IMG/VR virus record: IMGVR_UViG_3300048574_000421
Origin: a virus
Taxonomy: Duplodnaviria > Heunggongvirae > Uroviricota > Caudoviricetes
Length of the DNA stretch: 64,000 nucleotides
Reading direction: 5' to 3' (one strand)
The notes beneath the pieces are model-generated. The model saw nothing but the letters and a program-made list of their open reading frames with translations. It was not told the DNA's origin and did no database searches. A program made the position numbers and the translations under genes. Below, one piece after another: positions 42,853 to 62,804 of the stretch. Positions within the stretch are counted from its first letter, which is position 1. Each line of letters starts with the position of its first letter.

Positions 42853-43046
42853 TAATTTTGCCTTTTAAAAATCTCTAAAGTATCTATAGGATTTCCTTTA
42901 TCGAATTTTTCCCTAGTTTTTAAACCCTCAGGAATTTCTTTTTCAAAAAAATCTTGCTCTAATAAAAACTGTGAAACATCACCTTGTTGTGATCTTGAAA
43001 CACTTGCTTTAATTGATTCTTTTATTATTTTTTCAAAATTAATCAT
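42852..43046 (-). CDS. Hypothetical protein (64 aa)
   Basis: ORF track; translationally coupled on both sides. Confidence 0.6.
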   Translation of the reverse strand: MINFEKIIKESIKASVSRSQQGDVSQFLLEQDFFEKEIPEGLKTREKFDKGNPIDTLEIFKRQN

Positions 43047-43690
43047 ATTTTGTTATCTTTTTTTAGTTTTTTAATTTTCTCTAAAGAACTAGTGAGATCA
43101 GATTTTTCTTGTTTTTCAATTCCTATATTACTCATATTTGCTGTTATTCCAGCTTCTTCATCTTTAAAATCTATAAAAATAGTTTCAGAACTGCTATCAA
43201 TCTTTATATCTTTACCAGAGGTATGTGGTACATTTAGTTGTTCTATTTTAATATTGTCTTTAATTTCTGTGACCATCTCTTTTGCAAGTTCTTTAGCAAT
43301 CTCTTTCACTAAAGGACTATTTCTGATCATTTCTTCAGCCATAGTTTGGGCCATTGTTTTTGCAATATTAACTATTTCGTTTTGAGATATATTTTGAGAA
43401 CTTTCTTGAGTAGCAATTGTTTTTTTTGCTACAGTTTTATTGTAAACAACTTCAACCCAGTTTCTACTTATTGCATTTTTTAAATCTCTAGAACTTTTTG
43501 CTTCAAATTCTGTCAAGAAAACTTCTTTACCACACTCGACAACTTTCCTAATATCACTAAGACGTACTGCAGTAAGAATTTTCCCTCTTATAATCATATA
43601 AATGTCATCTTCCTGTTTCATAACTGGTGGTTTCCAAACACGTCTCATTAAGTGCTGCTGAAAGCTCATAAACCAACTTCTCAAACTCAT
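43043..43690 (-). CDS. Hypothetical protein (215 aa) with central amphipathic helical repeat
   Basis: AKTMAQTMAEEM...EIAKELAKEM segment; ORF track. Confidence 0.75.
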   Translation of the reverse strand: MSLRSWFMSFQQHLMRRVWKPPVMKQEDDIYMIIRGKILTAVRLSDIRKVVECGKEVFLTEFEAKSSRDLKNAISRNWVEVVYNKTVAKKTIATQESSQNISQNEIVNIAKTMAQTMAEEMIRNSPLVKEIAKELAKEMVTEIKDNIKIEQLNVPHTSGKDIKIDSSSETIFIDFKDEEAGITANMSNIGIEKQEKSDLTSSLEKIKKLKKDNKI

Positions 43691-43706
43691 GTTATTCTAG
43701 CAATTC

Positions 43707-44075
43707 TTAGATTAGTTTCTTTATAGCATCTTGAATTTGCTTTCCAGCTTGCTCTTGCGTTCTCTCCATAGCCCTATTTATACCTGCTGTAGAGAACTCT
43801 TGTTTACTCATTTCTTGATTTAATAATTCTATTGGTATTTTTTCAAAACCTTTTAAAACTGTTCTTGCTTGATCTGCTGGAATATCTTCAGATTCTATTT
43901 TCTCTTGCTTAGGCTCTACAACAAAAGTCACTTTATTTTTATCTATCGTATAAGTAACTTTTGCTTCTTGCCCTTCTTTGCTAAGCTCTGATTGAATGTT
44001 ATTCATTCCCTTGATAGCAATTGTTCGCATACCAAAGTCGAATTTTTTCTTAACCATCTTTTTCAAGCTTATCAT
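43707..44075 (-). CDS. Hypothetical protein, possibly HK97 gp10-like tail completion protein
   Basis: 122 aa ending GINRAMERTQEQAGKQIQDAIKKLI; syntenic position between head closure and tail terminator. Confidence 0.45.
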   Translation of the reverse strand: MISLKKMVKKKFDFGMRTIAIKGMNNIQSELSKEGQEAKVTYTIDKNKVTFVVEPKQEKIESEDIPADQARTVLKGFEKIPIELLNQEMSKQEFSTAGINRAMERTQEQAGKQIQDAIKKLI

Positions 44076-44090
44076 TTAGTTCTTTATTTT

Positions 44091-44106
44091 ATAAATTTTT
44101 TAGAAA
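44091..44106 (-). promoter_or_regulatory. Candidate late promoter variant TTTCTAaaaaATTTAT
   Basis: One mismatch to the motif; overlaps the stop of the last glycosyltransferase; 15 nt before the ATG at 44075, the same spacing as the copy at 6594. Confidence 0.45.
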
Positions 44107-47102
44107 ACTCTATTTTGTGTTTCTAATAGTTTATTTATCACAGAAAGATTTGTTTTTGCAGCGTCAAAATTCGGATTTATAGAAAGAGCACTCTTAAACA
44201 TACGCACTGCTTTTAAAAAATTGTTTCTACTTGCAAGTTCAATACCTTTTTCATTATATACTATCTCTAATAAACCTGTTGAAATCATTTCATCTTTGTT
44301 CATCTTTAAACACTTTTCAAAAATCACTATTGCTTCATCATATTTTTTTAAAGTGCTACAACAGTATCCAAAATCTGTCATTGTCTTGAAATCTGTTGTC
44401 TTGTAAGCTATCTTTTTAAATTCACAATATGCATCCTCATACTTATGTTGTTTTGCATAACAAATGCCAAGATGTTTCACAGCATATTCAGTTTCTTTTA
44501 TTTCAATAGATTCTTTAAATTTCTGTTCAGCTTGCTTATAATCTTCTAACAAGTTAAAAACTGTGCCTAAATGAGATAAAGCATCAACATTCTTAGGATC
44601 ATGTTCAAGTAATTTTCTCCAAATAACTATAGATTCATCATAATTATTAAGAACCATATATTGCGTACCAAGTTCATAAAGTGCTTTCTCATCATTTGTC
44701 GTAAGAGCTTTCTCTTTTCCAAGTTTCAAATACAATTCATTTTTTGAAGAATTAAATTTTGAATAATGATGTATTGGTATATCGCACAAATCTATTTCGA
44801 TTTCAAGCTCATTTATTGATTGCTCGACAAGTTCATGTACTTGACCATAAAACATAATTTTTTTATTTGTCGGGAATAACCGTACTTTGTCAGAACGACA
44901 CCAACCTACATAATTCTTTTCTTCGTCTTTATATTCACCCGTGTTTATATTTACACCTTCAGCATCTCTTGTTTTCACATAATTTCTTGTCGAAAAAACA
45001 TAAGCTTTCTGCTCGCCTTTAAGCAAACTTCTTAATTTATCAAGATCAATACTGCTTATAATCTCATCAGCATCTAACACTAAAGTCCATGCTTGTGTTG
45101 CTTGTGATAAAGAAAAATTTCTTGCAGCAGAAAAATCATCAATCCATTCAAAATGGAAAATTTTTGCACCATACTGCTTTGCTATTTTAATAGTATCATC
45201 TGTAGATCCTGTATCTACAACAATAATTTCTGATGCTATTGTTTTTATAGAACTCAAACAATTTGCTAAACAATTTTCTTCATTTTTCACAATCATGCAA
45301 ACAGAAAGTCGCTCTTTTTGCATATCCCAATAATTTGCATATAGTTTATGCAGAACCCCCTCTAGCGCATCAATACTATTGTGCCATAGGTATTCATTAG
45401 CAGTTTTCAGGCCTCCCTCGACCAAACGAGAGTAAAGGATGTTGTTTGAAAAAAGAAGTTTAAGAGCATGCTGAATTGCTGTACTGTCAGATGAATTAAT
45501 GACTAACGAATTTTTTCCGTTTTGTGCATAATCATTACCTCCACAATCCGTAGTAATAACTGGAGTTCCACATGCCATAGATTCTAAAGGTGGTAAACTA
45601 AAACCTTCAACTTTTAAAGGTGCATTTATAGTGACATCACAAGAAGAATATACTTCAGCGATCTGTTCTTGAGTCATTTTTGACATATCATGAAATTCAC
45701 AACCTTCATCAAATTTTGTCTTCTCTGAAGCTAAACGTACTATTACACCCTTTGAAGTTTTCAAATACTGTCTTACAGCATCAAGAGCTATTTTTACTCC
45801 CTTAAATTCTAAATTATAGTTACTTACAATCAAAATTCTAGCGTTTTTATTTCTACTATGAGATTTTAGCGGGAAAACATATTCGTTTATTCCATTTGGA
45901 ATAAAATAACAATTGACTCCAAATTCTTTATCAAGAATAGACTTTAGCCATTTTGAAACTGCAAATTTGACATTTACACTTCTATAACTATCTTTAATTG
46001 TTTGGATTAAAGCTTGACAATCATTTTCAGAATATAATAATGCTTCATAACCCTGCGAAAAATGTATTTTCACTTTAGCTTTTATTTTTTCAAGTACTTT
46101 TAATGTCGTAAAATATGTACCTATTGCAATATCACACTCAGGTATATCAGAAATTTCTTTGAAATAAAAAATGGGTGCATGTAAACCAAACCAAGTATCT
46201 AACTCATTTTTGTTGCACCAGATTGAGACATTGTAACCTCTATCTTTTAATCTGTTTGCATGTTCAAATATAACTTTCACGCCACCAGAAGGACCATTAG
46301 AAGCAAGTACGTATATTATAGAAAAATCTTCTTTTTTGTTCTGTATTAATCTTATTCGTCCTGTGTTGTACCATTTTTCTATATAAAGTTTTTTACTTTT
46401 TTCAAAGACTACATTATAAGAAGGTTGTTTAAATCTTTCACTGAATGATTTTCCACCATAATGATAAACAAGAACACCAAGAGCACAATAAAGTTTATAT
46501 CCTTTCTCTATTGCACGCAAACCTAAGTCGTCATCTTCAAAATTAAACTCAAATCTTTCATCAAAAATACCAGACCTATCTAGTACTTCTTTTTTTGTAA
46601 CCATACAGAAACCAATTAATCTATTTGTTTCAACAGATTTTTCACCATTTTCTCTCCAAACTTTTTCAGAAAAAACTTCAATAGGTGAATTGTTTTCTAC
46701 ATCTAAAGGCTGAAAGTAATCAAAAGGTATTTGTTGAACTTCAGATGATACATAGTTTGAGACAGGTCCTACAATTCCTGCATTATTTTTTTCTAAGCAA
46801 TCAATCAACCTTGTCAACCAGTTTTGTGTAACAATAGTATCACTATTTAAAAAACAAATATATTTTGAGTTCGACTCTCTAATTGCTTGATTGTTAGCAT
46901 AACCAAAACCGTAATTTTTACTATTTGTAATTAATTTTACTTGTAAAGTTTTTAAATAGTTTTTAGTTTCAATATTTGAACAATTATCAACAATAGTTAT
47001 TTTATAGGGAAAATCTGTATTTTTTACAATACTGTCAATGCATTTTTTAATATGCAACAATGCATTATGCACGACAATAATGATTTCACACTCATTTTTC
47101 AT
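44100..47102 (-). CDS. Multidomain glycosyltransferase GT2-GT4-GT2-TPR
   Basis: GT2 (IIIVVHN...DNCS...FLNSD...FEDDD); GT4 (SGGVKVIFEHAN...EGFSLPPLESMACGTPV); GT2 (LSVCMIVKNEE...DTGSTD...LDADE); C-terminal TPRs. Confidence 0.92.
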   Translation of the reverse strand: MKNECEIIIVVHNALLHIKKCIDSIVKNTDFPYKITIVDNCSNIETKNYLKTLQVKLITNSKNYGFGYANNQAIRESNSKYICFLNSDTIVTQNWLTRLIDCLEKNNAGIVGPVSNYVSSEVQQIPFDYFQPLDVENNSPIEVFSEKVWRENGEKSVETNRLIGFCMVTKKEVLDRSGIFDERFEFNFEDDDLGLRAIEKGYKLYCALGVLVYHYGGKSFSERFKQPSYNVVFEKSKKLYIEKWYNTGRIRLIQNKKEDFSIIYVLASNGPSGGVKVIFEHANRLKDRGYNVSIWCNKNELDTWFGLHAPIFYFKEISDIPECDIAIGTYFTTLKVLEKIKAKVKIHFSQGYEALLYSENDCQALIQTIKDSYRSVNVKFAVSKWLKSILDKEFGVNCYFIPNGINEYVFPLKSHSRNKNARILIVSNYNLEFKGVKIALDAVRQYLKTSKGVIVRLASEKTKFDEGCEFHDMSKMTQEQIAEVYSSCDVTINAPLKVEGFSLPPLESMACGTPVITTDCGGNDYAQNGKNSLVINSSDSTAIQHALKLLFSNNILYSRLVEGGLKTANEYLWHNSIDALEGVLHKLYANYWDMQKERLSVCMIVKNEENCLANCLSSIKTIASEIIVVDTGSTDDTIKIAKQYGAKIFHFEWIDDFSAARNFSLSQATQAWTLVLDADEIISSIDLDKLRSLLKGEQKAYVFSTRNYVKTRDAEGVNINTGEYKDEEKNYVGWCRSDKVRLFPTNKKIMFYGQVHELVEQSINELEIEIDLCDIPIHHYSKFNSSKNELYLKLGKEKALTTNDEKALYELGTQYMVLNNYDESIVIWRKLLEHDPKNVDALSHLGTVFNLLEDYKQAEQKFKESIEIKETEYAVKHLGICYAKQHKYEDAYCEFKKIAYKTTDFKTMTDFGYCCSTLKKYDEAIVIFEKCLKMNKDEMISTGLLEIVYNEKGIELASRNNFLKAVRMFKSALSINPNFDAAKTNLSVINKLLETQNRVF

Positions 47103-47110
47103 TTATTTCC

Positions 47111-47692
47111 TCACAAAAGTTTTACTTCGCTCCACTTTAAAACAACTCTTTTTTTTATATTAGAAAAAATATCGTTTTGTTTACCGTACCAATTTTGAAT
47201 TATATCAAGACGTTCACAAAACCAAAGTACTCTATTTAAGTTCATTTGTTCTATTCTTTCAATAAACTCTACATCAATCATTTTTAGTTTTGCATCTTTT
47301 ACCATAAAGTTTATTATTGTGAAATCATAGTTTATGAAACCTCTATTCCACATAAATTCAAACAAATCTAATACTTGTTTTATAATTACATCTTTATACT
47401 GCTCGTCTGATACTATAACTTTAATTAAATTTTCATAACCTTCTAATTCTTCCATAAGCAATAAAATCTTGTTATCTAAAAAAGCAAAATCATATATTTT
47501 TACAATATCTTCAACATTATCTATTTTTTTATAATTCTCATAACTCCCTATAATTTTACTTGCATTCCAAGCATCGGTTCGTGTCTCTTTCAAAAAAAAA
47601 TTCTGATCTTCAATAAAGACTCTATAAAAAATAGAAAATGGAGTTTTTAGAACTTCTATTTTTTGACTAATATTAGAGATTTTTATATCCAA
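47111..47692 (-). CDS. Protein-kinase-like fold kinase (sugar/RIO/Kdo kinase-like)
   Basis: FFLKE lysine strand, LLMEELEG hinge, NYDFTIIN catalytic loop, IDVE (DFG-like). Confidence 0.75.
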   Translation of the reverse strand: MDIKISNISQKIEVLKTPFSIFYRVFIEDQNFFLKETRTDAWNASKIIGSYENYKKIDNVEDIVKIYDFAFLDNKILLLMEELEGYENLIKVIVSDEQYKDVIIKQVLDLFEFMWNRGFINYDFTIINFMVKDAKLKMIDVEFIERIEQMNLNRVLWFCERLDIIQNWYGKQNDIFSNIKKRVVLKWSEVKLL

Positions 47693-48234
47693 AACTCACC
47701 CTCAAAAATTTCATCAAGACCTTCAAGTCTTTTTTTTGTAATTGATGTTTTTGATTTTATAGCAAAAAAAGCGCCAAAACCTATTTTTTTATGAAAATTA
47801 GGAAACACCCAACATTTGTAACCCAATTTGACAAAATCTTCTGGGTACCAACCTGATAAATGTGTATGATATTGTTCTTTACACTCATGGATTCCGACAG
47901 GTCCTAAAGGTGTAAAAAATATTATTCTGTCGTTTGTCAGTTTTTCAAGTGTTTTGATTAAAGTAAAACCATCATTTTTTTCTAAATGTTCGATCATATC
48001 AAAACATGTCACAAGATTGAAAAATTTCTCTTTTAAAAAAACAGAAAGTTGAAGAGCATCACCAGCAAAAAATGGCATTGGTGTCGTCTTAAAATCTGAC
48101 CTGTTTATTTCACTACATAATAAGTTTTTAGAAGTAATAATGTTACTAAATCTAAATGTCTCACCTGTTCCTACATCAAGATGATTTTCTACGTTCTTAG
48201 GTAGAACTGTCTCAAAAGCTTTTAAATAAATCAT
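47683..48234 (-). CDS. Class I SAM-dependent methyltransferase
   Basis: HLDVGTG motif I; FNLVTCFDMIEHL. Confidence 0.85.
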   Translation of the reverse strand: MIYLKAFETVLPKNVENHLDVGTGETFRFSNIITSKNLLCSEINRSDFKTTPMPFFAGDALQLSVFLKEKFFNLVTCFDMIEHLEKNDGFTLIKTLEKLTNDRIIFFTPLGPVGIHECKEQYHTHLSGWYPEDFVKLGYKCWVFPNFHKKIGFGAFFAIKSKTSITKKRLEGLDEIFEGEFWI

Positions 48235-48854
48235 TTTCTCAACACCACAACTTTTCTATCACCAAAAGTTCCAGATTTTGTTATTTTTTCTATAGTAAAA
48301 TATTTTTCTGCTTCTTCTATAAACCTACATTCTGTATAATCTTTTGTGAAACTATTGTCTTCCCAAGCACCAAGTTGTATTAAATAACTGCTTTCTAGAG
48401 GTAGTTCTAAAACAACATATCTAGAAGATAAAGCATCAATCTTTTTGAATACACTCCAACCTTCGTCTTTATACAAATAATGAAAACAATTTCCTGAAAA
48501 AATCATGTCGTATTTTACATTACTTGCAAATTCAGAAAAACTACAGTTTTTGATTTCAAGATTATTGCAATTTCTTACGTTTTTTATTTGGTTGCATAAA
48601 TTGACAGCATCAATGTTTTTCTCAATTCCCATGACATACTTTGATTTTAGCGAATGATAAAACAAAAAGTAGCCTATTGAACTACCAATATCTAAAAAAC
48701 AATCAAATGAAGAAAACAATATAGGAACTTCTTTTGAAAACACTTCAATTCGCAACTTTAACAAACCAAGAGGCTCTAACGTCTTTATGTCATAATAATA
48801 GTTTTGAGGATAAGCAGTTTCAAGTAGACGTCTTTGGATTTCTTCTAATGACAA
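48231..48854 (-). CDS. Class I SAM-dependent methyltransferase
   Basis: FLDIGSSIGYF...VMGIE...YDMIFSGNCFHYL. Confidence 0.85.
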   Translation of the reverse strand: MSLEEIQRRLLETAYPQNYYYDIKTLEPLGLLKLRIEVFSKEVPILFSSFDCFLDIGSSIGYFLFYHSLKSKYVMGIEKNIDAVNLCNQIKNVRNCNNLEIKNCSFSEFASNVKYDMIFSGNCFHYLYKDEGWSVFKKIDALSSRYVVLELPLESSYLIQLGAWEDNSFTKDYTECRFIEEAEKYFTIEKITKSGTFGDRKVVVLRK

Positions 48855-48859
48855 GTTTA

Positions 48860-50239
48860 TTACCTTTTTAACATAACATTTAGATTTTTTCTTGCGGGTT
48901 CAAATTTTGGATTTATAGCAAGAGATTTTTTAAACATTTTTATAGATTTTTCAACACTTGTTCCTGATAACTCTATACCTTTTTCATTATAGATTTTTTC
49001 TAACAAACCTGTTGTCAATGTATATTCTTTATCCATTTTTAAAGATTTTTCAAGAATAGTAATAGCTTCATCATATTTTTTTAAAACACCACAACAAAAT
49101 GCAAAATCAGTTAATGCTTTCACATCATAAGTCTTCTGTACGACTTTTTTAAATGCATAATATGCATCTTCAAATCTTTCTTGCTTTGCATAACAAACAC
49201 CAAGATGTATCAAAGCGTATTCAGACTCTTCTATGTCAATAGATTGTAAAAAAAGTTTTTCAGCTTGTTGAAAATCATTTAACAAATTCATTGTTGTGCC
49301 TAAATATGCTAGCGCATAATGATCTTTTGCATCTTTATTTAGAAGTTTTTCCCATACTGTCAAAGCTTTTTCATAGTTTTCTAAACCTAAGTATTGAGTC
49401 CCAAGATCGTAAAGTATTTTTTTATCAGCACAAGTTTTTAAAACTTCATCAGCAATTTTGCTTTTTAAATAACTTAATGCTTTATCAGCAAGCAAGCCAT
49501 TTTGTCTAATTAATTTAGGACCCCATTTTTTTACTAAAGTACTATATGAATATCTCACAAGATGATTTCTTTTTTCGCCATAAGATTGATTCGAATAATG
49601 ATACACATACACTTCATCACAAATTACTAATTTGAATTTCTTCTGTTGTATACGTAAAACAAAATCATCTTCACTCCCATAATGAGGGAAAACTCTTGCA
49701 TCTAACAAACCTACTTGTTTTATCACAAGCGAAGAAATAAAAAAACAAAAACCATTTACAAAACCTGTACTTGGGTACTTTTTTTCAGACAATGATACTA
49801 TAAACTTCCCATACTCTTCAATAGATTCTTCTTTAACTGCTTCTTTGCCTACAGATTGTGTTGTTGCACAATTAGACAAAACACCTATGCATCCGACATC
49901 TTTTTTATTTTCCCAAAAACTAGATATTTTTTCAAGCCAGTCTTCAGTTACAATTTTAGTATCAGAATTAAGCAAACAAACATAATCAAAGTTTTTACTT
50001 AATTGCATCCCAAGATTACAACTAATAGAAAAACCTTTTGCAGTATTATTACGAACAAGTTGTTGAACAATGCCTTCGTTATGTAACTCTTGACAAAAGT
50101 CTGCAGTTTCTTTATCTGAAGCATCATCAATCAAAATAATTTGATAATGAGATTTCTTTGATTTTTCAACAATTGAATCAATACAAATTTGCAACAAATG
50201 TTTTTGATTATGAACAGGTATAACAATTGAAGTACTCAT
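48860..50239 (-). CDS. GT2 glycosyltransferase with C-terminal TPR domain
   Basis: SIVIPVHN...IDDASD...LLNSD...YGSEDDF; TPR block paralogous to that of 44100-47102. Confidence 0.9.
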   Translation of the reverse strand: MSTSIVIPVHNQKHLLQICIDSIVEKSKKSHYQIILIDDASDKETADFCQELHNEGIVQQLVRNNTAKGFSISCNLGMQLSKNFDYVCLLNSDTKIVTEDWLEKISSFWENKKDVGCIGVLSNCATTQSVGKEAVKEESIEEYGKFIVSLSEKKYPSTGFVNGFCFFISSLVIKQVGLLDARVFPHYGSEDDFVLRIQQKKFKLVICDEVYVYHYSNQSYGEKRNHLVRYSYSTLVKKWGPKLIRQNGLLADKALSYLKSKIADEVLKTCADKKILYDLGTQYLGLENYEKALTVWEKLLNKDAKDHYALAYLGTTMNLLNDFQQAEKLFLQSIDIEESEYALIHLGVCYAKQERFEDAYYAFKKVVQKTYDVKALTDFAFCCGVLKKYDEAITILEKSLKMDKEYTLTTGLLEKIYNEKGIELSGTSVEKSIKMFKKSLAINPKFEPARKNLNVMLKR

Positions 50240-51216
50240 TAAAATAATCTCTCAATATTGCTTATTGTTTTTTCCCACGTAAACTTTTTTATTGTCTTCT
50301 CAATATTTTTTTTAAACTCTGTTGCAAGTCTCGGATGTCTCAAAAGATACTTTGATTTTTCAAAAACATCCTCTTCATCTTGTTTTTTTGCGACAACACA
50401 AGTCTTACCATCAAAAAAAACATCACCAAAAGCACCATCACAAACAACGGAGGGACAACCACATAGTGCTGCTTCTATAGGTGTCAAATTTAAACCTTCT
50501 GAAATTGAAGGCATTATAAAAATGCTACATTCATTGAAAACTTGTCTTATCTCGTCTTGTGTGGCATCTAAATATTGCGAAATAATTCTTGAAGGATGTT
50601 TTGCTTTTTCAAAATCATTTCTTGAACCAAAAATAATAGTACCATCAATCAAATTTTGTTGTTGCAATCTATTGCAAACTTTCACACCTAAACTATATTG
50701 CTTATCAGGAGAATTGTGATAAAGAAGAGATGCATATCTTGACCTTTCGATTTTACTTTCTTCAAAAAAATGCTTTTTTGAATCTAAACCAAAACCTATA
50801 CAGGCACATTGTATTCCTTCTTGCTCTATAGCTTTTTTAATTTTTAAAGTACTTGATGTTACAATAACTTTAGGATTTAAGACGTTTTTTCGCTCTCTTT
50901 CAAAACACATACCATAACTCAACATATAAATGATAACTTTTTTGACTTGTGGTAATCTTGTCAAAAACTCAGTATAAGGATTGTCTGAGTATGTAATCAC
51001 TATATCAGCTGAAGGAAAAGTATAGTCTGGAAGACCCACACTGTATGAAATTGAAATCTCTTTGTTATAATCTAAATCTGAATTAAAATTTTGAGCTCTT
51101 ACATGTACTCTATGTTTTTTATTAAGAGCTATAGCTAGTTGCATCATGTGTTGGATGCCACCACTTGTTTTTGAATAAAAAGGAATTTCGACAACAATAT
51201 TCATTTTTAAGACCAA
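50239..51216 (-). CDS. GT4 (GT-B) glycosyltransferase (likely start ATG 51204)
   Basis: SGGIQHMMQLA...FIMPSISEGLNLTPIEAALCGCP. Confidence 0.88.
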   Translation of the reverse strand: MVLKMNIVVEIPFYSKTSGGIQHMMQLAIALNKKHRVHVRAQNFNSDLDYNKEISISYSVGLPDYTFPSADIVITYSDNPYTEFLTRLPQVKKVIIYMLSYGMCFERERKNVLNPKVIVTSSTLKIKKAIEQEGIQCACIGFGLDSKKHFFEESKIERSRYASLLYHNSPDKQYSLGVKVCNRLQQQNLIDGTIIFGSRNDFEKAKHPSRIISQYLDATQDEIRQVFNECSIFIMPSISEGLNLTPIEAALCGCPSVVCDGAFGDVFFDGKTCVVAKKQDEEDVFEKSKYLLRHPRLATEFKKNIEKTIKKFTWEKTISNIERLF

Positions 51217-51217
51217 A

Positions 51218-52732
51218 TTAAAGTAAAGGTTTTATATATGCTTCAGGTCCTTTGTTTGGACTTCTTGTATCTTTACCTACCCAAGAGTCAAAAACACTAC
51301 CAATGTCTACTGCAACACCACCTGAAGATGAAAAAACACAACCTAAAATCTTTCCAACAAAACCTGCGCCATACAAGAAAAGCTCACCTTGACGTGGTTT
51401 TGATTTTATTATACTTTCTATATCTTGTATTTGCTTGATGAAATTTCTTGATGTACTTTTTACAGTTTCATATACTTGCTCACCAGATATCAAATGTTGT
51501 TCAATCTGCTCTATGTTCGGGTATTTTAAACTTATTTTTTCTTTTACATCTCTTGACGAAACAAGAAACAACTTTTTCGTCTCTTTAAAAATTTTGTCAT
51601 AACAATTTTCATGTAATAATTCATAATGTACATCTATTGTACAAAACTTGTTACATTTCCAGTTTTGTGGATTTTTAGTTTTTAGCTCTATGTAATAATC
51701 TTCAATGTTCTTCCAATAAACACTCGACCTTTTGTGATATGTTGTGGGTAAACCTAATACGTCAGCATGCATAATACTTTCGTTTATATTGTTTTTTACT
51801 TGCTCAAGTTCTAGATCAGACAACATATATCCTAATTGTTGTTCGCAATGCATTTGCATTCTATTTCTATCTTGACCAAAATATAACATCTCTCCGTCAC
51901 CAATACGTAAAACAAATAGAGATTTTTGGTTTTTAAGCGACTCAACAACTAAGTCAGCAACTTGTTTTGCGTTAAAATTAATCTGTATATTTTTTTTGTT
52001 TTTGTATTTGTTAATATCACCTATATCACGTTTAGAATAAAAATCTAACAAATGAGTCTTATCCATACCCCAAGCATCTTCTAACATTTTTCTGTTTACA
52101 TCTAACGTTTTTCTTTCATAACCTTCAGAAGTATGAAAAAGGTGATATGCATCAAAAGCAAGTTTTTTAAAATTTAACAAAGTTCTTATTTTATAAGAAA
52201 ATAAATTATCATCAGCACCCCAACCCACAAAATCTTCATCAAATCCGTTTATACGAAGAAAACAAGATTTTTTAATCAAAAAAACTGCTGAACAAAAATC
52301 AATGCCTATTCTTACAGATGTCTTTTTTGAAATAAAAGGTTCTTCATTTTCTTCAAGATCTAAAAGGTGTTTTTTAGGATCAATTGCATCAAAAGTCTTA
52401 CAAGCAAGAACACATTCATAAAGATCTTTAAATTTCATGACTGTGTCACAATCAGCATACACTAAAATATTTGTCGTCGCTGCTTTCGCAGCAATATTAC
52501 ATGCCCAACCCTTGTTAAATGCAGAATCGTTAAAAACAAAAATATGTTTGCAATTTTTTGGAAGCAAAAAATCTATTGTACTTTGAGAATCTTGCTCGAC
52601 TAAAATAATTTCAAAATTGTAAGACTTATTATCATCTAACCATTTTAAAACTTTTTTAAGACAATGCTCTCTCCCGCCTCTTTTCCTATAGACTAAAATA
52701 TAAGAAAATAATGGAGTTTTTTTAAAATTCAT
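51218..52732 (-). CDS. Two-domain glycosyltransferase: GT2/GT7C-like plus GT-D-fold-like
   Basis: FNKGWACN...ADCD...NGFDEDFVGWGADD (GT7C-like); C-terminal LRIGDGE...AVDIGSVFD (GT-D-like). Confidence 0.8.
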   Translation of the reverse strand: MNFKKTPLFSYILVYRKRGGREHCLKKVLKWLDDNKSYNFEIILVEQDSQSTIDFLLPKNCKHIFVFNDSAFNKGWACNIAAKAATTNILVYADCDTVMKFKDLYECVLACKTFDAIDPKKHLLDLEENEEPFISKKTSVRIGIDFCSAVFLIKKSCFLRINGFDEDFVGWGADDNLFSYKIRTLLNFKKLAFDAYHLFHTSEGYERKTLDVNRKMLEDAWGMDKTHLLDFYSKRDIGDINKYKNKKNIQINFNAKQVADLVVESLKNQKSLFVLRIGDGEMLYFGQDRNRMQMHCEQQLGYMLSDLELEQVKNNINESIMHADVLGLPTTYHKRSSVYWKNIEDYYIELKTKNPQNWKCNKFCTIDVHYELLHENCYDKIFKETKKLFLVSSRDVKEKISLKYPNIEQIEQHLISGEQVYETVKSTSRNFIKQIQDIESIIKSKPRQGELFLYGAGFVGKILGCVFSSSGGVAVDIGSVFDSWVGKDTRSPNKGPEAYIKPLL

Positions 52733-53376
52733 ATTTTTCCGTTTTGCTGTTTATTATATTGTTCAATTTCAAACTCAAAATCAGTTGTCTTTCTCCACGA
52801 CAAACTCCAGTGATGAACAGCATAAGAGTTTGGAAACTCTTTAGCTGCAATATATGGACTGTTGCATAAATATGGATAGAAAAAATTTGTGGGTATTGTC
52901 GCTACATTCCAACCTATTTCTTGTATTGCTTCTGTCATCAAAGTAGGTCCCCAAGGTGGCGGCAACATATAATATCTATGCAAGTTTTTATACTGATAAA
53001 CTATCCATTCATGCTGCTTTATAGCTCCAAATATAGCATTACAATATAAATTGGGAGTTTCTTTACAAGAAAATGCTTCAAAAATCAAGAAATCATCAAT
53101 GTTTTTATTCCATTCAAAATCCATATCGCAATAAACACCACCATAATTCATAATAGCATATAATCTAACAATATTTGATTTTGAACTAAATTGTTGAGCT
53201 GAGTTAGTCATTGTAACTAACTCAGTGTTTTTACATATCTCACGATCTGTCCATAATTTGTATTGCCAATCAGGATGCAAATCTTGCCACTCGTTCTTCC
53301 ATCGAATAAATGGCTCTGGAATTTTATTCTGACCTAACCACACTTGATGTAAAATTTTAGGTATTATTTTACTCAT
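52729..53376 (-). CDS. GT32 (DXD sugar-binding) glycosyltransferase
   Basis: IPKILHQVWLG...SNIVRLYAIMNYGGVYCDMD...HHWSLSW. Confidence 0.9.
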   Translation of the reverse strand: MSKIIPKILHQVWLGQNKIPEPFIRWKNEWQDLHPDWQYKLWTDREICKNTELVTMTNSAQQFSSKSNIVRLYAIMNYGGVYCDMDFEWNKNIDDFLIFEAFSCKETPNLYCNAIFGAIKQHEWIVYQYKNLHRYYMLPPPWGPTLMTEAIQEIGWNVATIPTNFFYPYLCNSPYIAAKEFPNSYAVHHWSLSWRKTTDFEFEIEQYNKQQNGKI

Positions 53377-53708
53377 TGTATCTTATCATGACCTTGTCTT
53401 GTCATATCAGGTAATGAAACATTATACATAGGTCTTTTCTCGTAAAGCATGTCCATATCATAAATATTTAGATCCCTTGCTCTATTTCGAGCATGCAAAG
53501 CTCTCATTGGTCTAAAATCTTGATAAACACGATTTTCAACAGGATTTCCACCACTTTTGTCAGAACCTTTAGGAATAATGCTGTCAATTTTTTGTTCAAC
53601 ACGAACAGCATCAGGAGAGTTCTTGGGCAACTCTCCAACTTCTTTTCTTAAAGGTCCTCGTCTATATGTTGCTGTCGGTGCAATTACGAGATTGTCCATT
53701 ATGCCCAA
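53373..53708 (-). CDS. Hypothetical protein (111 aa)
   Basis: ORF track; ATGA-coupled to the GT32 gene. Confidence 0.7.
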   Translation of the reverse strand: MGIMDNLVIAPTATYRRGPLRKEVGELPKNSPDAVRVEQKIDSIIPKGSDKSGGNPVENRVYQDFRPMRALHARNRARDLNIYDMDMLYEKRPMYNVSLPDMTRQGHDKIQ

Positions 53709-54283
53709 ATCCTTGTGAATGATCTTTCAAACAAATGAATTCGTCCTTTTGAGTCTTTTCTCGGGTTGTTTTTATAATAACAATTTTGATAATTTCCTTC
53801 ACCTTTAACATAAAGAAAATTTGCAGCTTTTGCAAAAACATGTGCTTGCGAAAATCTAGTTGCAGGATTTCTAACGGTCCTTAACACAGGTCGATCAACT
53901 TGTTTAAAAGTCGGCGCTGGATAATTTCCTGAAGGATTAAACCATGCACCATTATTCATTCCTTCATCTACTAAATATTTGTCAGCTTCAAGTTGTGGTT
54001 TTTCAACATCAGCTTTTAAATTTTTTCTTCTAATTGCCCATTGATTAAGCATCTCATTGTTGGTTGTCACTGTCATAGGAATCGTTGTTTCATTTATACT
54101 ATATTGCGATCCTGACACCATAAACTCTGGAAAATTATTTAAAGTTTCTTGTTCTGAAACAAATTGTTGAAGAGGTCTTCCTGGTTGTTTCCTTGAAACA
54201 TCAAACTGGTCACGCTCAATACTTGAAAACTTAATATTGCGTTTTGCAGGATCTGCTATAATAATCCCATGTAATGTTGACAT
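53699..54283 (-). CDS. Hypothetical protein (194 aa)
   Basis: ORF track; RBS; overlaps the next gene. Confidence 0.75.
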   Translation of the reverse strand: MSTLHGIIIADPAKRNIKFSSIERDQFDVSRKQPGRPLQQFVSEQETLNNFPEFMVSGSQYSINETTIPMTVTTNNEMLNQWAIRRKNLKADVEKPQLEADKYLVDEGMNNGAWFNPSGNYPAPTFKQVDRPVLRTVRNPATRFSQAHVFAKAANFLYVKGEGNYQNCYYKNNPRKDSKGRIHLFERSFTRIWA

Positions 54284-54301: not shown

Positions 54302-57300
54302 TTATTTATGTTCTCTATCTTTCATGTTAGGTAAGTTTACACCAGAAAATAAAGATTTTATTTTCGGTAATCTTAGTTTGCTATCATCTTTTCCAGAAAT
54401 AATAATACCTTCATAGGTACGTCCTGCAATAGCAAGTTCTTTACAAAAAATCATAACAGGAGAATTTTGAATAATTGTACTCTCAGCTACAAAATAAACA
54501 TCATAGTTTTTTGAAGATCTCAAACCTGTCAATGTAAGAATATTAGCTACATTAGTTTGAACAACTACGTTGCTATTAATTGCATTTTTATTCTTTGAGT
54601 TTTTACCTGCTTTAACTTGAGCTGACGTAGGTGCTTCAGAACCTGAAGTGACAGCTACAGCATAACATTTACCTTGTGAACGTAGACCTACTAAAAAAGT
54701 ACATGTTTTCGAATCACGAACTTGCAAAGAAGGTAACAAATCCATCCATACAGGCGGGAAAATGACACCACCTGAATTTGCTCCTATACCTGAACGAGGT
54801 TTTCCCCATAGATCTAATTCATAGTCAGTGTATGGTGAAACACCTGGTTGCGGTGATACTGGGACATTAGCATACATATTAGTGATAGTAAAAGCAGTTT
54901 CTGGAGCATCCCATGCAGGCCATTCAGATGTCAATCCTCCATTAGGAATAAAAACTGTATTTTCATATTTCTTATGTGTTACTTTAAGATAAACCACAGA
55001 ACAGTTAATAAAAGTAGCACTTACTGAATTATCAACTACATAATCAATTGCACAATTTATAAAATTTTGATCTCCACCTTGTAAACTATGTACTTTAAAT
55101 GCACAATCTACAGCAGTAAATCCTGATCCTGCATACAAATTTATATTGTTTGCTTTTACAGAACAACCTCTAATTGTTTCTGTAGAAAAAACCTGCGTCT
55201 CTTGAAGTAAAATCAAATACATATTAAAAAACTTTGTATTTGAATTTGTCACTTTTGAAAGTGCTTGTAAAATACCATCAGCTATTGTCGTGTTTGTTGC
55301 AACAAATGAACTGCTTGTTGATATTCTCCAAGGTCCATTTTCAACAGCATTCCAAGCTCTATAAACTAGATTTTGTACTGGATTATATTGTGACCAAAAA
55401 ACTACTTGTTGATGAAAAGTTGCAGTTCCTTTCATATAAAAAACAGTATTGTTCTCGACAGTAGACAATTTACTTTGCCAATCTTCAATAGATAATGCGT
55501 CATTTATTGTTCCTGTACCACTATTAGATTTATTCAAATCTACATAGTAAATTTCACCTGTCGGGCGTAAATCTAACTTTACTATATCAGATTGTACATC
55601 ATGAGTTGATTTGTCAGCTACAAAATATACGTCATAATCAACACCTGTTATAAGATTTGAAGCTGTCAGTGTTGATTCAGTAGATCCTGAAATGACACTA
55701 CCTGAAAACCCAACACTTACTGTTTCACCATTAGCATTTTGTCCTGATAAAATTTGATTTGTTGTTGGTGCTGTTGCACCATGCGGTACAATTACAAATC
55801 TTGCAATACCATCAACATCAGTTGCCACTTTAAATGTCGCACTTGTTCCAGATATACTACTAATTTTGGGATATGTAGTTACCCAATTGATAAACAATAA
55901 AGCTCTAGTAAATCCTGTGCCTATAGTTTGTCTTGGTACTCCCCATAAATCTGTCTCATAACCCGTGTATGGAATCAAACCAGGCTGTGGGGGTGTTGTA
56001 ACATCTTCATAAAGAAAACCTGTTGAAAAGTCTTCTTTAGGTTGCCAAAATTCTGGGAACGGTGGTGGATACCAATTGTTTTGGCAATTCGATTTAACAA
56101 GATTACCTGAAGATTTATTAAAAGCACAATTGACAGCTGTTCCAGATCCAGAAGATGCAATTGCACCTGTAACTTTAAAAGCACTGCTTTCTAGTTCAGC
56201 TGAAACAGGATCAAAATCCCCAGATACTGAAACTAAACAACCCTTCATAGTAACTTTACTAGAAGAAACAACAGATTCATTAAAAGTAACTTGACAATTA
56301 AGAAAAACAGCATCACTTGGGTCTGAACAACTAATAAGAATACCACCATTTATAGTACAATTTGCAACACCATTTGCACGTATTGCCCAAGGTCCATTTA
56401 TATCAGGACGCCAAGGTAAGTAATTATGCGATGAAGAAACATTAAAAGTACCAGAATTACTTGATTCTCTGCCTTTCATAAAAAATGTATGAGACAAGAT
56501 AGGATAGTCATAAATTAGTATCTGCCATTCTTGCCAATCAAGAGGATTAAGAGGTCCACCAATAGGATGTGAAGGGTTAGAAATAACTGTGTCTCCTTGT
56601 AAATCTACGTACTGTACACAATCAGTACTTATTCCAATACCAACTCTATTATCACCCCATATCTCTTTATCATAATTATCTGGAACTTCTATAGGATTAT
56701 CGGGGATAAAATCTGTAAAAGGTACTGTACCTGGATTTGGTGGATAATTCACAAAATGAGGTGCAAGACTATTTAGTTTATAATATAATCCTCTAAATGC
56801 TTCTTTATCACTATTAAAAGTAGGATGTCCATAGTAAGCTGAAGACCATGATTCATAATTTGTACAAGGATATGGTGCTGAGCCACTATTAGAAATACAA
56901 TTATAATGCTGTATAGAAGTAGAAAATGATGATGCTACTATTGCACAATCATTTATTGTTGTTCCTAAAGATACAGGTTGATAAGAACCACTTGAAACTA
57001 AATGGCAACCTTTCATTGTTCCTTGTACAAAATTTCTACATTTTATGTAACATGTCGAAAAATAATAGTTACCTCCTGTTATATCAATGTTATTTAACCA
57101 AAACACACCACCCCTTAAAAAAGCCGAAGCTCCTGATGCAAGATGTCTGCTTAAACTCATACGCCAAGGACCATTTATTAAAGGATCCCAAGGTAAATAA
57201 TAATTGATTATGCTACCACTAGTATCAAAAGATATATCTATTGTACTTGTAACATCTTCAATAGATCCCTTAGTATAAATAACATATCCTTGATTTGTCG

Positions 57301-57403: not shown

Positions 57404-57472
57404 ATAACACTCCTTTTAAAAACGCAATTACTTGCAAATTATAAACATAAGACTAAACTCTTGAGAGAAAAC

Positions 57473-57503
57473 AAAAAAGCAGGAAAATTCTTCCTGCTTT
57501 TTT
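57473..57503. terminator. Bidirectional intrinsic terminator
   Basis: AAAAAAGCAGGAA-AATTC-TTCCTGCTTTTTT perfect inverted repeat with A6/T6 flanks. Confidence 0.85.
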
Positions 57504-57529
57504 GTTGTAGATTTTTACTTTAAAGCATT

Positions 57530-59101: not shown

Positions 59102-61861
59102 TTAGTATTCTATGTTTTCAAATGTTATACTTCTACCTTTAACAACATGATCGACATTTACATTTTGATGTGAAACAAAATCTTCACTTGTCCTAAGCTC
59201 TTCTCTTTCTTTAGGACTGTCAATTGTAGCAACATTAGGACCACCATGAAGAACATGTTTACTACTCTTATCAATACCAGGTTGTGATCTTTGATCAGGT
59301 AAAACTACTTTAAATTTATGTCGAACATCAGTACCATCAAGCACTTCAACAACAAAATGTTGTTGTACTCTTACGCCGCCTGGTCCCTCAACTGGCGTCA
59401 ATGGACCAACTAAACACCTATCACCATTTCTTCGAATTATCATATCTCTTTGATTTACTATTGGTGTTGGTCCCATCCAAGTTTCTATCTGATATGCTAA
59501 TTTCAACCCTCTATCAGTTTGTTGAACTCTTTGTTCTGTCATTAAAGGTCCAATAGTGATCGGGAACGGTCCATCAAATCCACCAACAAATCCAGAACCA
59601 AAACATGTTTCACAATCTTGATCAGGTTGTTTATGTGTTCTTTCTTTCAAATCTCTATAAGTACAATGACATTTTACACCAGCTTTTTTCTTAATATAAA
59701 GTAAGACTCTCTCTCCACCCTGATCAAGCAACCAAGCATTTCTACGTACAGCTTCTTCAAACATGTACGTCATTTTATCAGGTGTCATAGTCACAGGAGA
59801 TATCAAATCTAAATCAGTCTCGTCCTCGCCCGTCACACAAGTAACTTTGTAGTAATAATTCTTCCTTAGTCTTAAATTAGTTGTATGCGTTGGTACTCTA
59901 TAAGACACTAGTACAGTTGAAAACTCATTTGGCACAGGAGGCGTAAAATGTATTTTCTTAACTTCGTCGTAAACTTTCTCTGTCTCTAACTGTACAACAC
60001 CTTCTAATCCTTGTAACAAACGAACATAAGCTTGTTGACCATCTATTGTCACATTAACAAACTTTGAATCATCAGTTGGTTTATTTTTACCTGAATCATC
60101 AACGACAGGACGTTGACTAAGATAAATAAGATATTCTTTTCTAGGATTTAAAGGTTGAATTAAAATTGGATAACCTGATTCAACAACAAACTCAGAAAAC
60201 TTTATCTCTACTTGTTTATCTTCAGACTTCCCAGAAAACTCAACATTAACATCGTCAGAGTAATTATTAAAAGTACCTAACATTACAAAATCATTTGTCA
60301 AATGATTGAAAAAATATGTTGTCACAACATCGCTCTGTCTTAAAATCCTAAACTCTCCTGAAGTAATAGGAGATGGCATTGTTAAAGGCATGTCAGGATT
60401 TCCATTGACTGTTTGCTGAGTACAATAGACATCAATATTGTGAGACATACTTCTTGAAATCTCAATACTATTTTTATCGTCTTTCTTAATCACAAATCTG
60501 CAAGATTGTATACCATTAGTTGGCGGTATCCAAACAAACAAATCAAATTTAACTCTAATATCAAAATCACCTCGCATTTTAAATTTTGAAGTAAGTCTTG
60601 ATGTTTCTTTTAAACCTGTATTATCTTTAAAAATTACGCCATCATATTTAAACATTAACTGACCAGGATCAGACTCTTCCCATTTTGAAGAATCAAACTC
60701 TCCTGAACCCTCAAAATCATCATTAACATCTCTGCTAATATTAACAATACGTCTAAATTGTTCACTTACATCTTCATTAACAACTTGAGTATCTAGATTT
60801 TTGTCAGTGTATTGAGTAATTGCAATAACTTCTGAATTTAACTTTTGAAAAGGTCCTATTTCAACATCGCTTCTATAAACGTTATAACCAATAACTTGAT
60901 TAAAAATTGGATACATATCATCCCAACGAATGTACAACTCATCTTGATTAAAAGGACAAGTAACAAAAACATTTGTTGGTATATAATTATTTCTTGATAT
61001 CTCTACATTATAAACTTCTGTATGAATTGCTTCAGTATTACCAATTTCATCTACAGCAAAAAACTTTATTGTTGTTACATAATTGTCGCGAACATTTATT
61101 GGTGCAGTATATATAGAAGAGTTTGTTGTTGGTGTTGATCCATTTGTTGTATAATAAATTTTAGAACGAGGATCATCAACAGAAAGAACAACTTGTTGTG
61201 AAGTAAAAAAAGAACCACCAGATGGTGTAGCTTTAGAAACGGGAACAGTTGAATCTATTGTATAATTTTCAGTCAACTGTTCTGAAATTGCATTTGGAAG
61301 TAAACCGATGCTTCTTAAAACTGTTGTTCCTTGTGAACTTATAGAAATTGGACTTGAATATATTGTAGAATATAAAGTAGGTTCAGTTCCGTCTGTTGTG
61401 TATCTAATTTCAGTCAACAAACTATCAGAAGAAAGATTTACAGTAACTGCAGAATTAAAAATCTTACCATGAGGAGAAACTACAACTAAAGGTTTCGAAA
61501 TAGAAGGATCTTGTGCTGTAAGAAAAACATAGTCATCCTCACTCAACTCACCACGTAAGTCTTCAATCTGTATATGAATATCTACTGTTTGACAAAAACT
61601 AAAAGGTGCTAACTGATATATAATAACGCTTATTGAATTTGGTACTTGATTTTCTTGTGTTATTACACCTTCAAATCCTGTTTGAAAAACTCCATTTACA
61701 ATAGCAGAAACACTTAAGATAGAAACATTCAATGTGTTAACATTTACACCATGTATATCTTGTGCTCTAAAAAATACAGGTACGCACGAATAAGGTGCAT
61801 TAAGTTTTGCACCTATTGCACCCTTAATTGGACTATGATTTACAAAAGTTGGTTTAGACAT
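59102..61861 (-). CDS. Head closure/neck protein (Zn-finger type) fused to Ig-like, chitobiase-C-like, FN3 and lectin-like domains
   Basis: Two YTT(D/N)GxxPT..S.IY..PI repeats; FN3 (LYIRWDD...GYNVYRSD); C-terminal WLLDQGGERVLLY...CHC...CETCFGSGFVGGF; follows the adaptor gene. Confidence 0.7.
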   Translation of the reverse strand: MSKPTFVNHSPIKGAIGAKLNAPYSCVPVFFRAQDIHGVNVNTLNVSILSVSAIVNGVFQTGFEGVITQENQVPNSISVIIYQLAPFSFCQTVDIHIQIEDLRGELSEDDYVFLTAQDPSISKPLVVVSPHGKIFNSAVTVNLSSDSLLTEIRYTTDGTEPTLYSTIYSSPISISSQGTTVLRSIGLLPNAISEQLTENYTIDSTVPVSKATPSGGSFFTSQQVVLSVDDPRSKIYYTTNGSTPTTNSSIYTAPINVRDNYVTTIKFFAVDEIGNTEAIHTEVYNVEISRNNYIPTNVFVTCPFNQDELYIRWDDMYPIFNQVIGYNVYRSDVEIGPFQKLNSEVIAITQYTDKNLDTQVVNEDVSEQFRRIVNISRDVNDDFEGSGEFDSSKWEESDPGQLMFKYDGVIFKDNTGLKETSRLTSKFKMRGDFDIRVKFDLFVWIPPTNGIQSCRFVIKKDDKNSIEISRSMSHNIDVYCTQQTVNGNPDMPLTMPSPITSGEFRILRQSDVVTTYFFNHLTNDFVMLGTFNNYSDDVNVEFSGKSEDKQVEIKFSEFVVESGYPILIQPLNPRKEYLIYLSQRPVVDDSGKNKPTDDSKFVNVTIDGQQAYVRLLQGLEGVVQLETEKVYDEVKKIHFTPPVPNEFSTVLVSYRVPTHTTNLRLRKNYYYKVTCVTGEDETDLDLISPVTMTPDKMTYMFEEAVRRNAWLLDQGGERVLLYIKKKAGVKCHCTYRDLKERTHKQPDQDCETCFGSGFVGGFDGPFPITIGPLMTEQRVQQTDRGLKLAYQIETWMGPTPIVNQRDMIIRRNGDRCLVGPLTPVEGPGGVRVQQHFVVEVLDGTDVRHKFKVVLPDQRSQPGIDKSSKHVLHGGPNVATIDSPKEREELRTSEDFVSHQNVNVDHVVKGRSITFENIEY

Positions 61862-61979
61862 TGTCTTTTTCTGTTTTCTTTATTTCTTTAGCTAAATTCT
61901 TGATTTTGTCTTTATTTCTATCGACAAGTTTTTTTTCAATAAGTTTTTTAATTTCTAACCAATCTATTTCTTTTGTCAT
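61854..61979 (-). CDS. 41-aa ORF, probable C-terminal fragment of the HAD phosphatase (missing from the ORF track)
   Basis: MTKEIDWLEIKKLIEKKLVDRNKDKIKNLAKEIKKTEKDNV; ATGA overlap with the GIY-YIG stop; DWxxI helix typical of the end of BT0820-like HADs. Confidence 0.6.
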   Translation of the reverse strand: MTKEIDWLEIKKLIEKKLVDRNKDKIKNLAKEIKKTEKDNV

Positions 61980-62803: not shown

Positions 62804-62804
62804 T

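Follow-up and report, generated by a model that had tools for sequence, protein, structure and literature searches.

A soluble eight-gene glycosylation cassette at a fixed neck-operon site of related huge phages, with a candidate role in virion protein glycosylation

The 64,000-nucleotide stretch of tailed-phage DNA analyzed here, referred to as the window, covers bases 21950-85949 of a 210,938-bp IMG/VR record (IMGVR_UViG_3300048574_000421, here G000), 32.7% G+C, and carries a cassette of eight glycosylation genes among the genes that join head to tail. The cassette is an exchangeable island: related phages retain a giant glycosyltransferase (GT) ending in tetratricopeptide repeats (TPRs) but differ in the accessory genes around it. 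We propose, with a probability a little above even (roughly 0.55), that the cassette glycosylates a candidate virion protein in the cytoplasm by means of a TPR-docked multi-enzyme set. Two near-complete genomes serve as the main points of comparison: the closest relative, G001 (424 kb, 98% complete), and G002 (192 kb, 97% complete). The NCBI source label of the G001 giant GT (P0008) is a ‘Candidatus Nanoarchaeia archaeon’ metagenome-assembled genome; the gene order of this contig is that of a tailed phage, and it was therefore probably mis-binned as archaeal.

All eight open reading frames (ORFs) were found on the minus strand at 44100-53376, where a previous reading of the DNA from its sequence alone had placed them, and they are co-oriented and tightly coupled, as that reading had held, with spacings of -10 to +8 nt and no convincing minus-strand terminator inside the cluster (Table 1). 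Pfam places eight catalytic domains in five GT genes, each GT-A domain retaining a DxD-type motif and both GT4 domains an E-x7-E motif; together with two methyltransferases and a kinase, this bears out the count given by the sequence-only reading (Pfam, motifs, the Atlas and PDB alignment). When each domain is checked against profiles, Pfam confirms the GT domains, the first methyltransferase (MT1) matches weakly, the second (MT2) has no match, and the kinase falls under the cut-off. Among the GTs, the GT32-like protein has as its top PDB sequence matches the TcdA/TcdB-type protein glucosyltransferase domains of large clostridial toxins and of related effectors (7e-7), matches that are short and may reflect just the common GT-A core, and its gene has no relative in G001 or G002. 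The 504-residue GT matches the GT-D-like family (PF22882; 2.1e-11, 44 bits against a cut-off of 27), Glycos_transf_2 (1.9e-7) and Glyco_transf_7C (1.2e-6), as well as NCBIfam GT-D_rel (1.1e-7, under its cut-off); its GT-D half is 36% identical to a free-standing ORF of G001, and as a query in the related-locus search it had no match. The 325-residue GT4 shares 59-66% of its residues with its cassette counterparts in G002 and G001, and the giant GT ends in a GT2 domain at residues 598-~720 followed by TPRs at ~800-940. MT1 barely exceeds the TehB cut-off (20.6 bits against 20.4), carries the motifs DIGSSIG and MGIEKN, and is kept together with MT2 and the kinase at the related locus L090. MT2 falls among S-adenosylmethionine (SAM) methyltransferases in the Atlas (feature score 0.97; TM 0.78-0.83 to Methyltransf_11-type clusters) and has sixteen relatives at 37-99% identity. 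The kinase-fold protein aligns over residues 28-146 with the catalytic cores of PDB kinases and retains the Lys, Asp...Asn and Asp motifs; it has three relatives only, among 5.8 billion proteins, and its gene adjoins MT2 in two other genomes.

None of the eight proteins has a membrane segment, nor was an amphipathic anchor found. The maximal 19-residue hydropathy is <=1.61, the peak region aligns with the soluble cores of other GT2 domains, and the PHROG GtrB-like match spans the soluble GT2 core alone; the PHROG matches of the cassette GTs are generic GT families. The cluster has 29.4% G+C, compared with 33-33.5% in its flanks, and megablast of the cluster against phage records gave no match. 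Pseudogenized or junk ‘moron’ DNA was considered and rejected because all eight frames are intact, the catalytic motifs are kept, and other genomes hold counterparts of the core, of the MT-MT-kinase block and of the GT-D domain at 36-68% identity.

Comparison with relatives reveals a fixed site of variable content. A scan anchored on the tail terminator produced 73 related viral loci, and a cassette is present at the junction of the small genes p111 and p122 in seven genomes (that of the window included), all of the close subclade; relatives with the cluster unlinked to structural genes, which would have spoken against the sequence-only reading, were not seen. The giant GT-TPR is the sole invariant cassette gene and has about 22 full-length homologues (983-1749 aa) in public data. 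In the window it stands, at 1000 aa, behind GT32, GT-A+GT-D, GT4, GT2-TPR, two methyltransferase and kinase genes, and in L090 (1003 aa) behind two methyltransferases and a kinase. In G001 it reaches 1273 aa, following a methyltransferase, a GT-D-like gene, two CmcI-like O-methyltransferases and a GT4, and in G002 (1290 aa) it closes a cassette of 11 genes, the others being a GT4, a methyltransferase fusion, a DegT fragment, an ATP-grasp, a radical SAM/SPASM, a methyltransferase, a GT11, an unknown, a DUF268 and a methyltransferase gene. The L088 cassette consists of a TnpB-like gene and two further ORFs, then a GT4 and a 1264-aa giant GT, and two further contigs hold a methyltransferase, a radical SAM gene and a giant GT of 1677 or 1749 aa, one of them with two Pfam-less ORFs in addition. 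The giant enzyme itself varies: its N-terminal GT2, fused in G001, G002 and L088, is in the window the separate 459-residue GT2-TPR (55-62% identity between the GT2 domains), which has acquired its own copy of the giant GT’s TPR (54% identity). The MT-MT-kinase trio occurs in only two of the seven cassettes, and in another relative (logan SRR23086391 contig) the MT2 and kinase genes overlap as a pair ~3 kb upstream of that for the major capsid protein, with no neighboring GT domains on record; the occurrence of the pair near a capsid gene and apart from any GT marks it as a mobile two-gene unit and not a fixed part of the cassette. Because accessory genes are swapped between phages, the glycan would differ from phage to phage.

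Outside the close subclade the site carries no cassette. The neck gene p919 and the actin-fold gene volactin are just 1.3-4.8 kb apart in 32 distant relatives (28-37% terminator identity), with typically two small ORFs and no GT match between them; in two of these loci volactin is absent and the interval was measured to the terminator. The neck cassette is also absent from G003 (67% complete), and the neck site is empty in G006 (427 kb, complete by direct terminal repeats). The cassette site of L088 also holds, besides the TnpB-like gene (Cas12f1-like_TNB), a DUF4116 gene, and the presence of mobile elements at the same junction fits a recombination hot spot.

Several signatures suggest, from sequence comparison, that the cassette enzymes are protein-directed: the TPR fusions, the SunS/YolJ-like GT2-TPR, the toxin-like GT32 and the GT-D domain. 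The best NCBIfam match for the TPR-adjacent GT2 of the giant GT is the SunS family (TIGR04195; 8.5e-22, residues 547-684), scoring 77.6 bits against an equivalog cut-off of 350 and covering profile positions 8-145 only. Over residues 584-830 the giant GT is 28% identical to SPbeta yolJ, which we take to be sunS, and its order of domains, GT2 then TPR, fits the SunS-type architecture of a catalytic GT2 followed by a helical/TPR substrate-binding domain. The TPR domain of FlmG is necessary and sufficient to bind its flagellin substrate (PMC7591256), and GT-D is likewise combined with GT-A in dGT1, a cytoplasmic enzyme that lengthens the O-glycan on the streptococcal adhesin Fap1 (PMC5063993). 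The same signatures could serve an acceptor outside the virion, either a secreted glycopeptide (glycocin-like, compare SunS and sublancin; phage- or host-made) or host proteins such as flagellin or pilin during take-over. In its favor are the closeness of the GT2-TPR end to the SunS family and SPbeta yolJ, the likeness of the GT32-like protein to toxins whose targets are glucosylated host proteins, and the radical SAM/SPASM, ATP-grasp and methyltransferase genes in the cassettes of relatives, which are found in peptide-maturation clusters as well. We nevertheless consider such a target improbable: neither a bacteriocin nor a take-over function would be expected at a fixed place among neck genes and in tight coupling with them, eight GT domains far exceed the need of a monoglycosylated glycocin, and no precursor-peptide, immunity or exporter gene was noticed at the seven cassettes, where no systematic search was made.

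The genes of membrane-based pathways are missing. Neither Bac_transf nor Wzx is present in the 211-kb record, G001 or G002, and Glycos_transf_4 (WecA/MraY-type) is likewise absent from the record, so that the claim of the sequence-only reading that there is no flippase or polyprenyl transferase, made for the window, holds for the whole record. Its further claim that there is no sugar-nucleotide gene is right for the window and wrong for the genome, as the record holds a NAD epimerase/dehydratase outside the window. NTP_transferase is absent from G000, G001 and G002, and epimerase/dehydratases number one or two in these genomes; with these and no nucleotidyltransferase, the sugars must come from host nucleotide-sugars with minor remodeling. 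It is conceivable that the enzymes would instead build or remodel a host envelope polysaccharide at the cytoplasmic side of the membrane, drawing on the primed undecaprenyl carrier and an ABC exporter of the host, with the MT-MT-kinase trio acting as a WbdD-like terminator. The kinase-fold and methyltransferase genes do sit between GT genes, cell-wall or O-antigen enzyme is the annotation given to bacterial homologues of the GT2-TPR parts, and ABC-dependent pathways require no phage membrane protein. This explanation is harder still to credit: no initiating transferase or flippase is found in the record or the near-complete relatives (ABC exporters were not searched for), the trio is confined to two cassettes, the MT2-kinase pair occurs near a capsid gene without any GT in one relative, and the proteins lack transmembrane segments and amphipathic anchors. 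Moreover, the cassette lies in the virion assembly operon of an apparently lytic huge phage, and late synthesis would leave little time for a change of the host surface. Hypermodification of the phage DNA with oligosaccharides on hydroxymethylated pyrimidines, as an evasion of restriction, is very unlikely: although very diverse phage GT-A and GT-B enzymes that glycosylate 5-hydroxymethylcytosine are known (bioRxiv 10.1101/2023.12.21.572611) and variable cassettes would fit an arms race with nucleases, no ThyA-like hydroxymethylase (PF00303) or C5 cytosine methyltransferase (PF00145) is present in G000, G001 or G002 (a ThyA-like gene is present in three relatives without a neck cassette, and a search for Tet_JBP (PF12851), whose control was silent, has no bearing on the presence of TET/JBP), known pathways cluster with hydroxymethylation-type and replication genes, not neck genes (bioRxiv 10.1101/2023.12.21.572611), and the TPR docking, SunS-like and GT-D signatures point to protein acceptors.

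The reading that we favor is that a virion protein is glycosylated in the cytoplasm; of the sequence-only proposal to this effect, the parts that gain support are the solubility of the enzymes, the missing membrane-pathway genes (in the record and both near-complete relatives) and the protein-directed look. In the mechanism that we propose, the eight genes would together encode a soluble protein-glycosylation machinery of the cytoplasm and would most likely be transcribed along with the neck and tail genes. While the virion is assembled, this machinery would equip one or more of its proteins with an oligosaccharide that is methylated and possibly phosphorylated. The TPR module, present on the GT2-TPR protein and on the giant enzyme, would first dock the enzymes on the acceptor protein, after which a protein-directed GT-A would add the first sugar from a host nucleotide-sugar, the candidates for this step being the SunS-like GT2 that adjoins the TPR and the toxin-like GT32. 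The other GT2, GT4 and GT-D domains would then lengthen the chain, and the two methyltransferases and the kinase-fold protein would tailor or cap it. The finished glycan may shield the virion or aid adhesion.

Several observations weigh against this proposal. The phage is uncultivated and known from metagenomes only. Substrate-type family matches all lie far under their curated equivalog cut-offs, GT2-TPR proteins are also common in bacterial polysaccharide clusters, and a methyltransferase together with a kinase is the hallmark of the WbdD chain terminator, which belongs to a lipid-linked O-polysaccharide pathway. No obvious Ser/Thr-rich tail was found on any virion protein, and where a Ser/Thr-rich extension of the tail tube was sought, as on the mycobacteriophage tail tube, the C-terminus of the tube protein is ordinary. 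The capsid and protease genes lie ~60 kb from the cluster. Finally, absences in the 211-kb record alone are weak evidence; more weight attaches to those in G001 and G002. Although the record carries a ‘provirus’ flag and a completeness of 91%, a 426,911-bp contig encodes the identical kinase-like protein; because of this copy and the 424-kb size of the closest relative, the record is probably partial, and the whole phage genome, at some 427 kb, would be about twice as long.

The cassette can be likened in function to several known systems, and by sequence it is a member of none of those families. To our knowledge, mycobacteriophages, with their small gene sets, are the only phages for which glycosylation of virions by phage-encoded enzymes has been demonstrated. 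Mycobacteriophages Che8, Corndog and Myrna use their own soluble GTs to decorate capsid and tail-tube subunits in the cytoplasm, which shields the virion (Freeman et al. 2023, cited through PMC12363180 and PMC12619734). The likeness lies in phage-encoded soluble GTs (here eight domains with intact motifs and no transmembrane segment), but the glycan is proven on those virions and proposed here, the set here, which comprises five GT genes, two methyltransferases and a kinase, far exceeds theirs, and TPR docking modules, a fixed neck-operon site and cassette-wise variation set it apart. With the giant GT as the one query among the five GT proteins, tblastn over 50,697 phage records turned up no mycobacteriophage, and hence no homologue of the Che8 gp110 or Corndog gp38 GTs. 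Many GT genes in a phage are not unprecedented, as a cyanomyovirus with 13 predicted GTs has been published (PMC12801897); this, along with the 11-gene cassette of G002, tempers the suggestion of the sequence-only reading that the cluster is larger than known phage examples.

Among viruses of eukaryotes, chlorovirus PBCV-1 builds a complex capsid glycan with cytoplasmic multi-domain GT and GT+methyltransferase enzymes (A064R, A111/114R; PMC7826918), and the fibril glycosylation gene clusters of Megavirinae are clade-specific (PMC10117803). These systems resemble the cassette as virus-encoded multi-domain GT/methyltransferase machinery for a complex virion glycan; they belong to eukaryotic giant viruses with no homology shown, and they encode nucleotide-sugar pathways, whereas here there is an epimerase/dehydratase only, and TPR fusions are a feature of the phage enzymes. 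SunS, Caulobacter FlmG and Listeria GmaR share with the cassette a cytoplasmic GT joined to a TPR/helical substrate-binding domain, with folded or unfolded proteins as substrates (PMC7591256), but each has one catalytic domain and one sugar type, and here that unit is fused to two more GTs and accompanied by four further GT genes; FlmG, moreover, is a GT-B enzyme with an N-terminal TPR. The O-glycosylation of streptococcal serine-rich-repeat adhesins (GtfA/B, Gtf3, dGT1) likewise takes place in the cytoplasm, where several soluble GTs, a GT-D + GT-A hybrid among them, act in sequence on one protein (PMC5063993). The 504-residue GT has GT-A before GT-D, the reverse of the dGT1 order; the ORFs and domains listed for the window and the 211-kb record, where no family-specific search was made, show no GtfA/GtfB pair, serine-rich-repeat substrate or accessory Sec, and the sole SdgA/SdgB-like signal is a weak, generic GT4 match. 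E. coli O9a WbdD combines a kinase and a methyltransferase; the putative counterparts here, a kinase fold and SAM methyltransferases recognized by weak scores, are adjacent genes among GTs, conserved as a unit, and could add a methyl phosphate cap. WbdD is one protein, the genes here are separate, and no coiled-coil ruler, lipid-linked pathway or exporter was seen. Serotype conversion of the Gtr type (GtrA/GtrB/GtrC) depends on membrane-embedded flippase and transferases, of which there are none among the cassette proteins. What is new is the organization: a fixed neck-operon site, an invariant giant GT-TPR, quickly exchanged accessory genes, and a second island beside a Thr-rich collagen-like fiber.

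The genes that surround the cassette place it inside the operon for head-to-tail joining and the tail, as matches to connector, p919, terminator and sheath proteins flank it. The gene order is connector-like, p919, p194, p111, cassette, p122, p215, volactin, tail terminator, sheath and tube. The C-terminus of p919 is 32% identical to gp322, a ‘minor tail protein’ of Tunturiibacter phage Tunturi_5, and p919 precedes the cassette site in all relatives; the sheath is 35% identical to the Tunturi_5 tail sheath over 97% of its length, and the 300-residue gene directly upstream of a GIY-YIG endonuclease gene matches the Tunturi_5 head-tail connector protein. The terminator is followed by the sheath in the 73 related loci, in most of which volactin is also held in place, at 38-61% identity. 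The sequence-only reading had set the cluster between head-closure and gp10-like/terminator genes; the neck context is supported, and no match identifies the flanking 194-, 111- and 122-residue genes as head-closure or gp10-like. p194, p111 and p122 have no PHROG or Pfam match, and p194 has no PDB match by phmmer. p194 and p111 are 42-75% identical in G001, G002 and L088, and L090 has size-matched ORFs in the corresponding position. p194 is found together with the cassette, and its profile found no match in five relatives without a neck cassette. The AlphaFold2 model of p194 is mostly disordered (pLDDT 43), and an Atlas feature search gave just sub-threshold matches to extended ciliary proteins for p194 and none for p122, whose AlphaFold2 model (pLDDT 63) had no Foldseek match in the PDB. 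By hhalign against the small-ORF families of distant relatives, p194 and p111 were negative and p122 reached 21% probability; the p215 family sits directly before volactin across the wider clade (97%, 3e-11). An ORF of L085 at the position equivalent to p122 matches HK97-gp10_like, the link to p122 being positional.

Two genes of 1033 and 519 residues, between p919 and p194, are absent at the same place in G001 and G002 and are therefore a recent insertion into the neck operon of this genome; tblastn of the 1033-residue neighbor against phage records gave no match. These two genes are separated by a strong palindromic hairpin with a 16-bp stem, and it is possibly here that the transcription unit of the cassette is delimited. 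Endonuclease genes of the DUF559 and GIY-YIG/NUMOD3 homing types are inserted in the structural operon, and comparable insertions occur in relatives, for example L034 and L046, at varying places.

A second GT cluster is located outside the window, directly downstream of three tail-fiber genes (Table 1). The first of these encodes a collagen-like fiber with 294 uninterrupted Gly-X-Y triplets, Y being Thr in 123/294 and Gln in 122/294. This fiber is a candidate acceptor for the second cluster and recalls, by analogy, the Bacillus exosporium protein BclA, whose Thr-rich collagen-like region is glycosylated. Extra GT2 genes outside the neck cassette are also present in G001 (a pair of similar size that matches the second cluster) and G002 (others), and G003, which has an empty neck site, contains no GT2. 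G006 has an unrelated GT2-TPR-GT4 cluster ~8 kb upstream of p919. Together, the second cluster and that of G006 indicate that TPR-linked GT clusters near structural genes recur in the clade. Near the G006 cluster lie an HNH gene and a Mom-family protein, a possible DNA-modification enzyme.

Table 1. Positions of the cassette, its neighbors and related features (window numbering unless a record or locus is given; MT, methyltransferase)
Feature	Coordinates	Strand	Basis or remarks
GT32-like glycosyltransferase, 215 aa	52729..53376	-	DMD motif; Pfam Gly_transf_sug 2.1e-13, weak TcdA_TcdB match
Two-domain GT, 504 aa	51218..52732	-	Pfam; N-terminal GT-A (GT2/GT7C-like), C-terminal GT-D-like
GT4 glycosyltransferase, 325 aa	50239..51216	-	E-x7-E; Pfam Glyco_trans_1_4 3.7e-12
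GT2-TPR glycosyltransferase, 459 aa	48860..50239	-	Pfam GT2 5.5e-19 and TPR families
Class I SAM methyltransferase MT1, 207 aa	48231..48854	-	Weak Pfam: TehB, Methyltransf_12/25/31
Class I SAM methyltransferase MT2, 183 aa	47683..48234	-	Motifs LDVGTGE, FDMIEHL; without Pfam match
Minimal kinase-fold protein, 193 aa	47111..47692	-	Pkinase 7.1e-6, 26 bits against cut-off 31.7
Giant GT2-GT4-GT2-TPR glycosyltransferase, 1000 aa	44100..47102	-	Pfam GT2 x2 6.6e-47, GT4 1e-16, TPR 1e-22
p194 and p111, small conserved genes	53373..54283	-	Directly upstream of cassette
p122 and p215, small conserved genes	43043..44075	-	Directly downstream of cassette
p919, neck/minor-tail protein	59102..61861	-	Pfam Fn3_assoc and CHB_HEX_C; upstream anchor
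Actin-fold protein (volactin)	40806-41903		Pfam Volactin 2.4e-70; between p215 and tail terminator
Tail terminator, 409 aa	39171..40400	-	tblastn match to Tunturi_5 ‘tail terminator’; downstream anchor
Tail sheath, 902 aa	31558..34266	-	phrog_2839 7.1e-32
1033-aa and 519-aa genes	54302-59089
Palindromic hairpin	57470..57506		Flanking T/A runs; in the sole sizeable upstream intergenic gap (126 nt)
DUF559-type endonuclease	41893-42852
GIY-YIG/NUMOD3 homing endonuclease	61976-62830
TnpB-like and DUF4116 genes at cassette site	L088:6750-8915
Collagen-like tail fiber, 1149 aa	G000:C1:96355-99804 (L010:356-3805)
Second GT cluster	G000:C1:104711-111141 (L010:8712-15142)		GT2-TPR-methyltransferase (516 aa), four small unknown ORFs, GT2 (424 aa), HNH endonuclease, GT4 (357 aa)
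G006 cluster	L089:2879-10772, 13349-14803		GT2-TPR-GT4, FkbM methyltransferase, GT4, cupin, nucleoside diphosphate-sugar C-methyltransferase, epimerase/dehydratase, GFO/IDH/MocA oxidoreductase

If virion glycosylation by the cassette is true, environmental huge phages would devote two islands in each genome, of eight to eleven genes apiece, to a glycan coat. Like bacterial O-antigens, this coat would diversify through the exchange of cassettes at a fixed site, and the giant GT-TPRs, with three to six catalytic domains in 983-1749 residues, would be compact, soluble, membrane-independent assembly lines of use for protein glyco-engineering. Taken further, and only tentatively, the neck site can be viewed as an O-antigen-like ‘serotype island’ for the phage particle, a fixed recombination site with a kept, TPR-docked giant GT and shuffled accessory genes (transferases, methyltransferases, radical SAM enzymes and a kinase), through which each phage would place a different, possibly polymeric, methyl-phosphate-capped glycan on its neck and tail proteins, with the second island dressing the collagen-like fiber. 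We regard this extended view as rather doubtful; were it true, virion glycan diversity would be a major unseen axis of phage-host and phage-grazer interaction in the environment.

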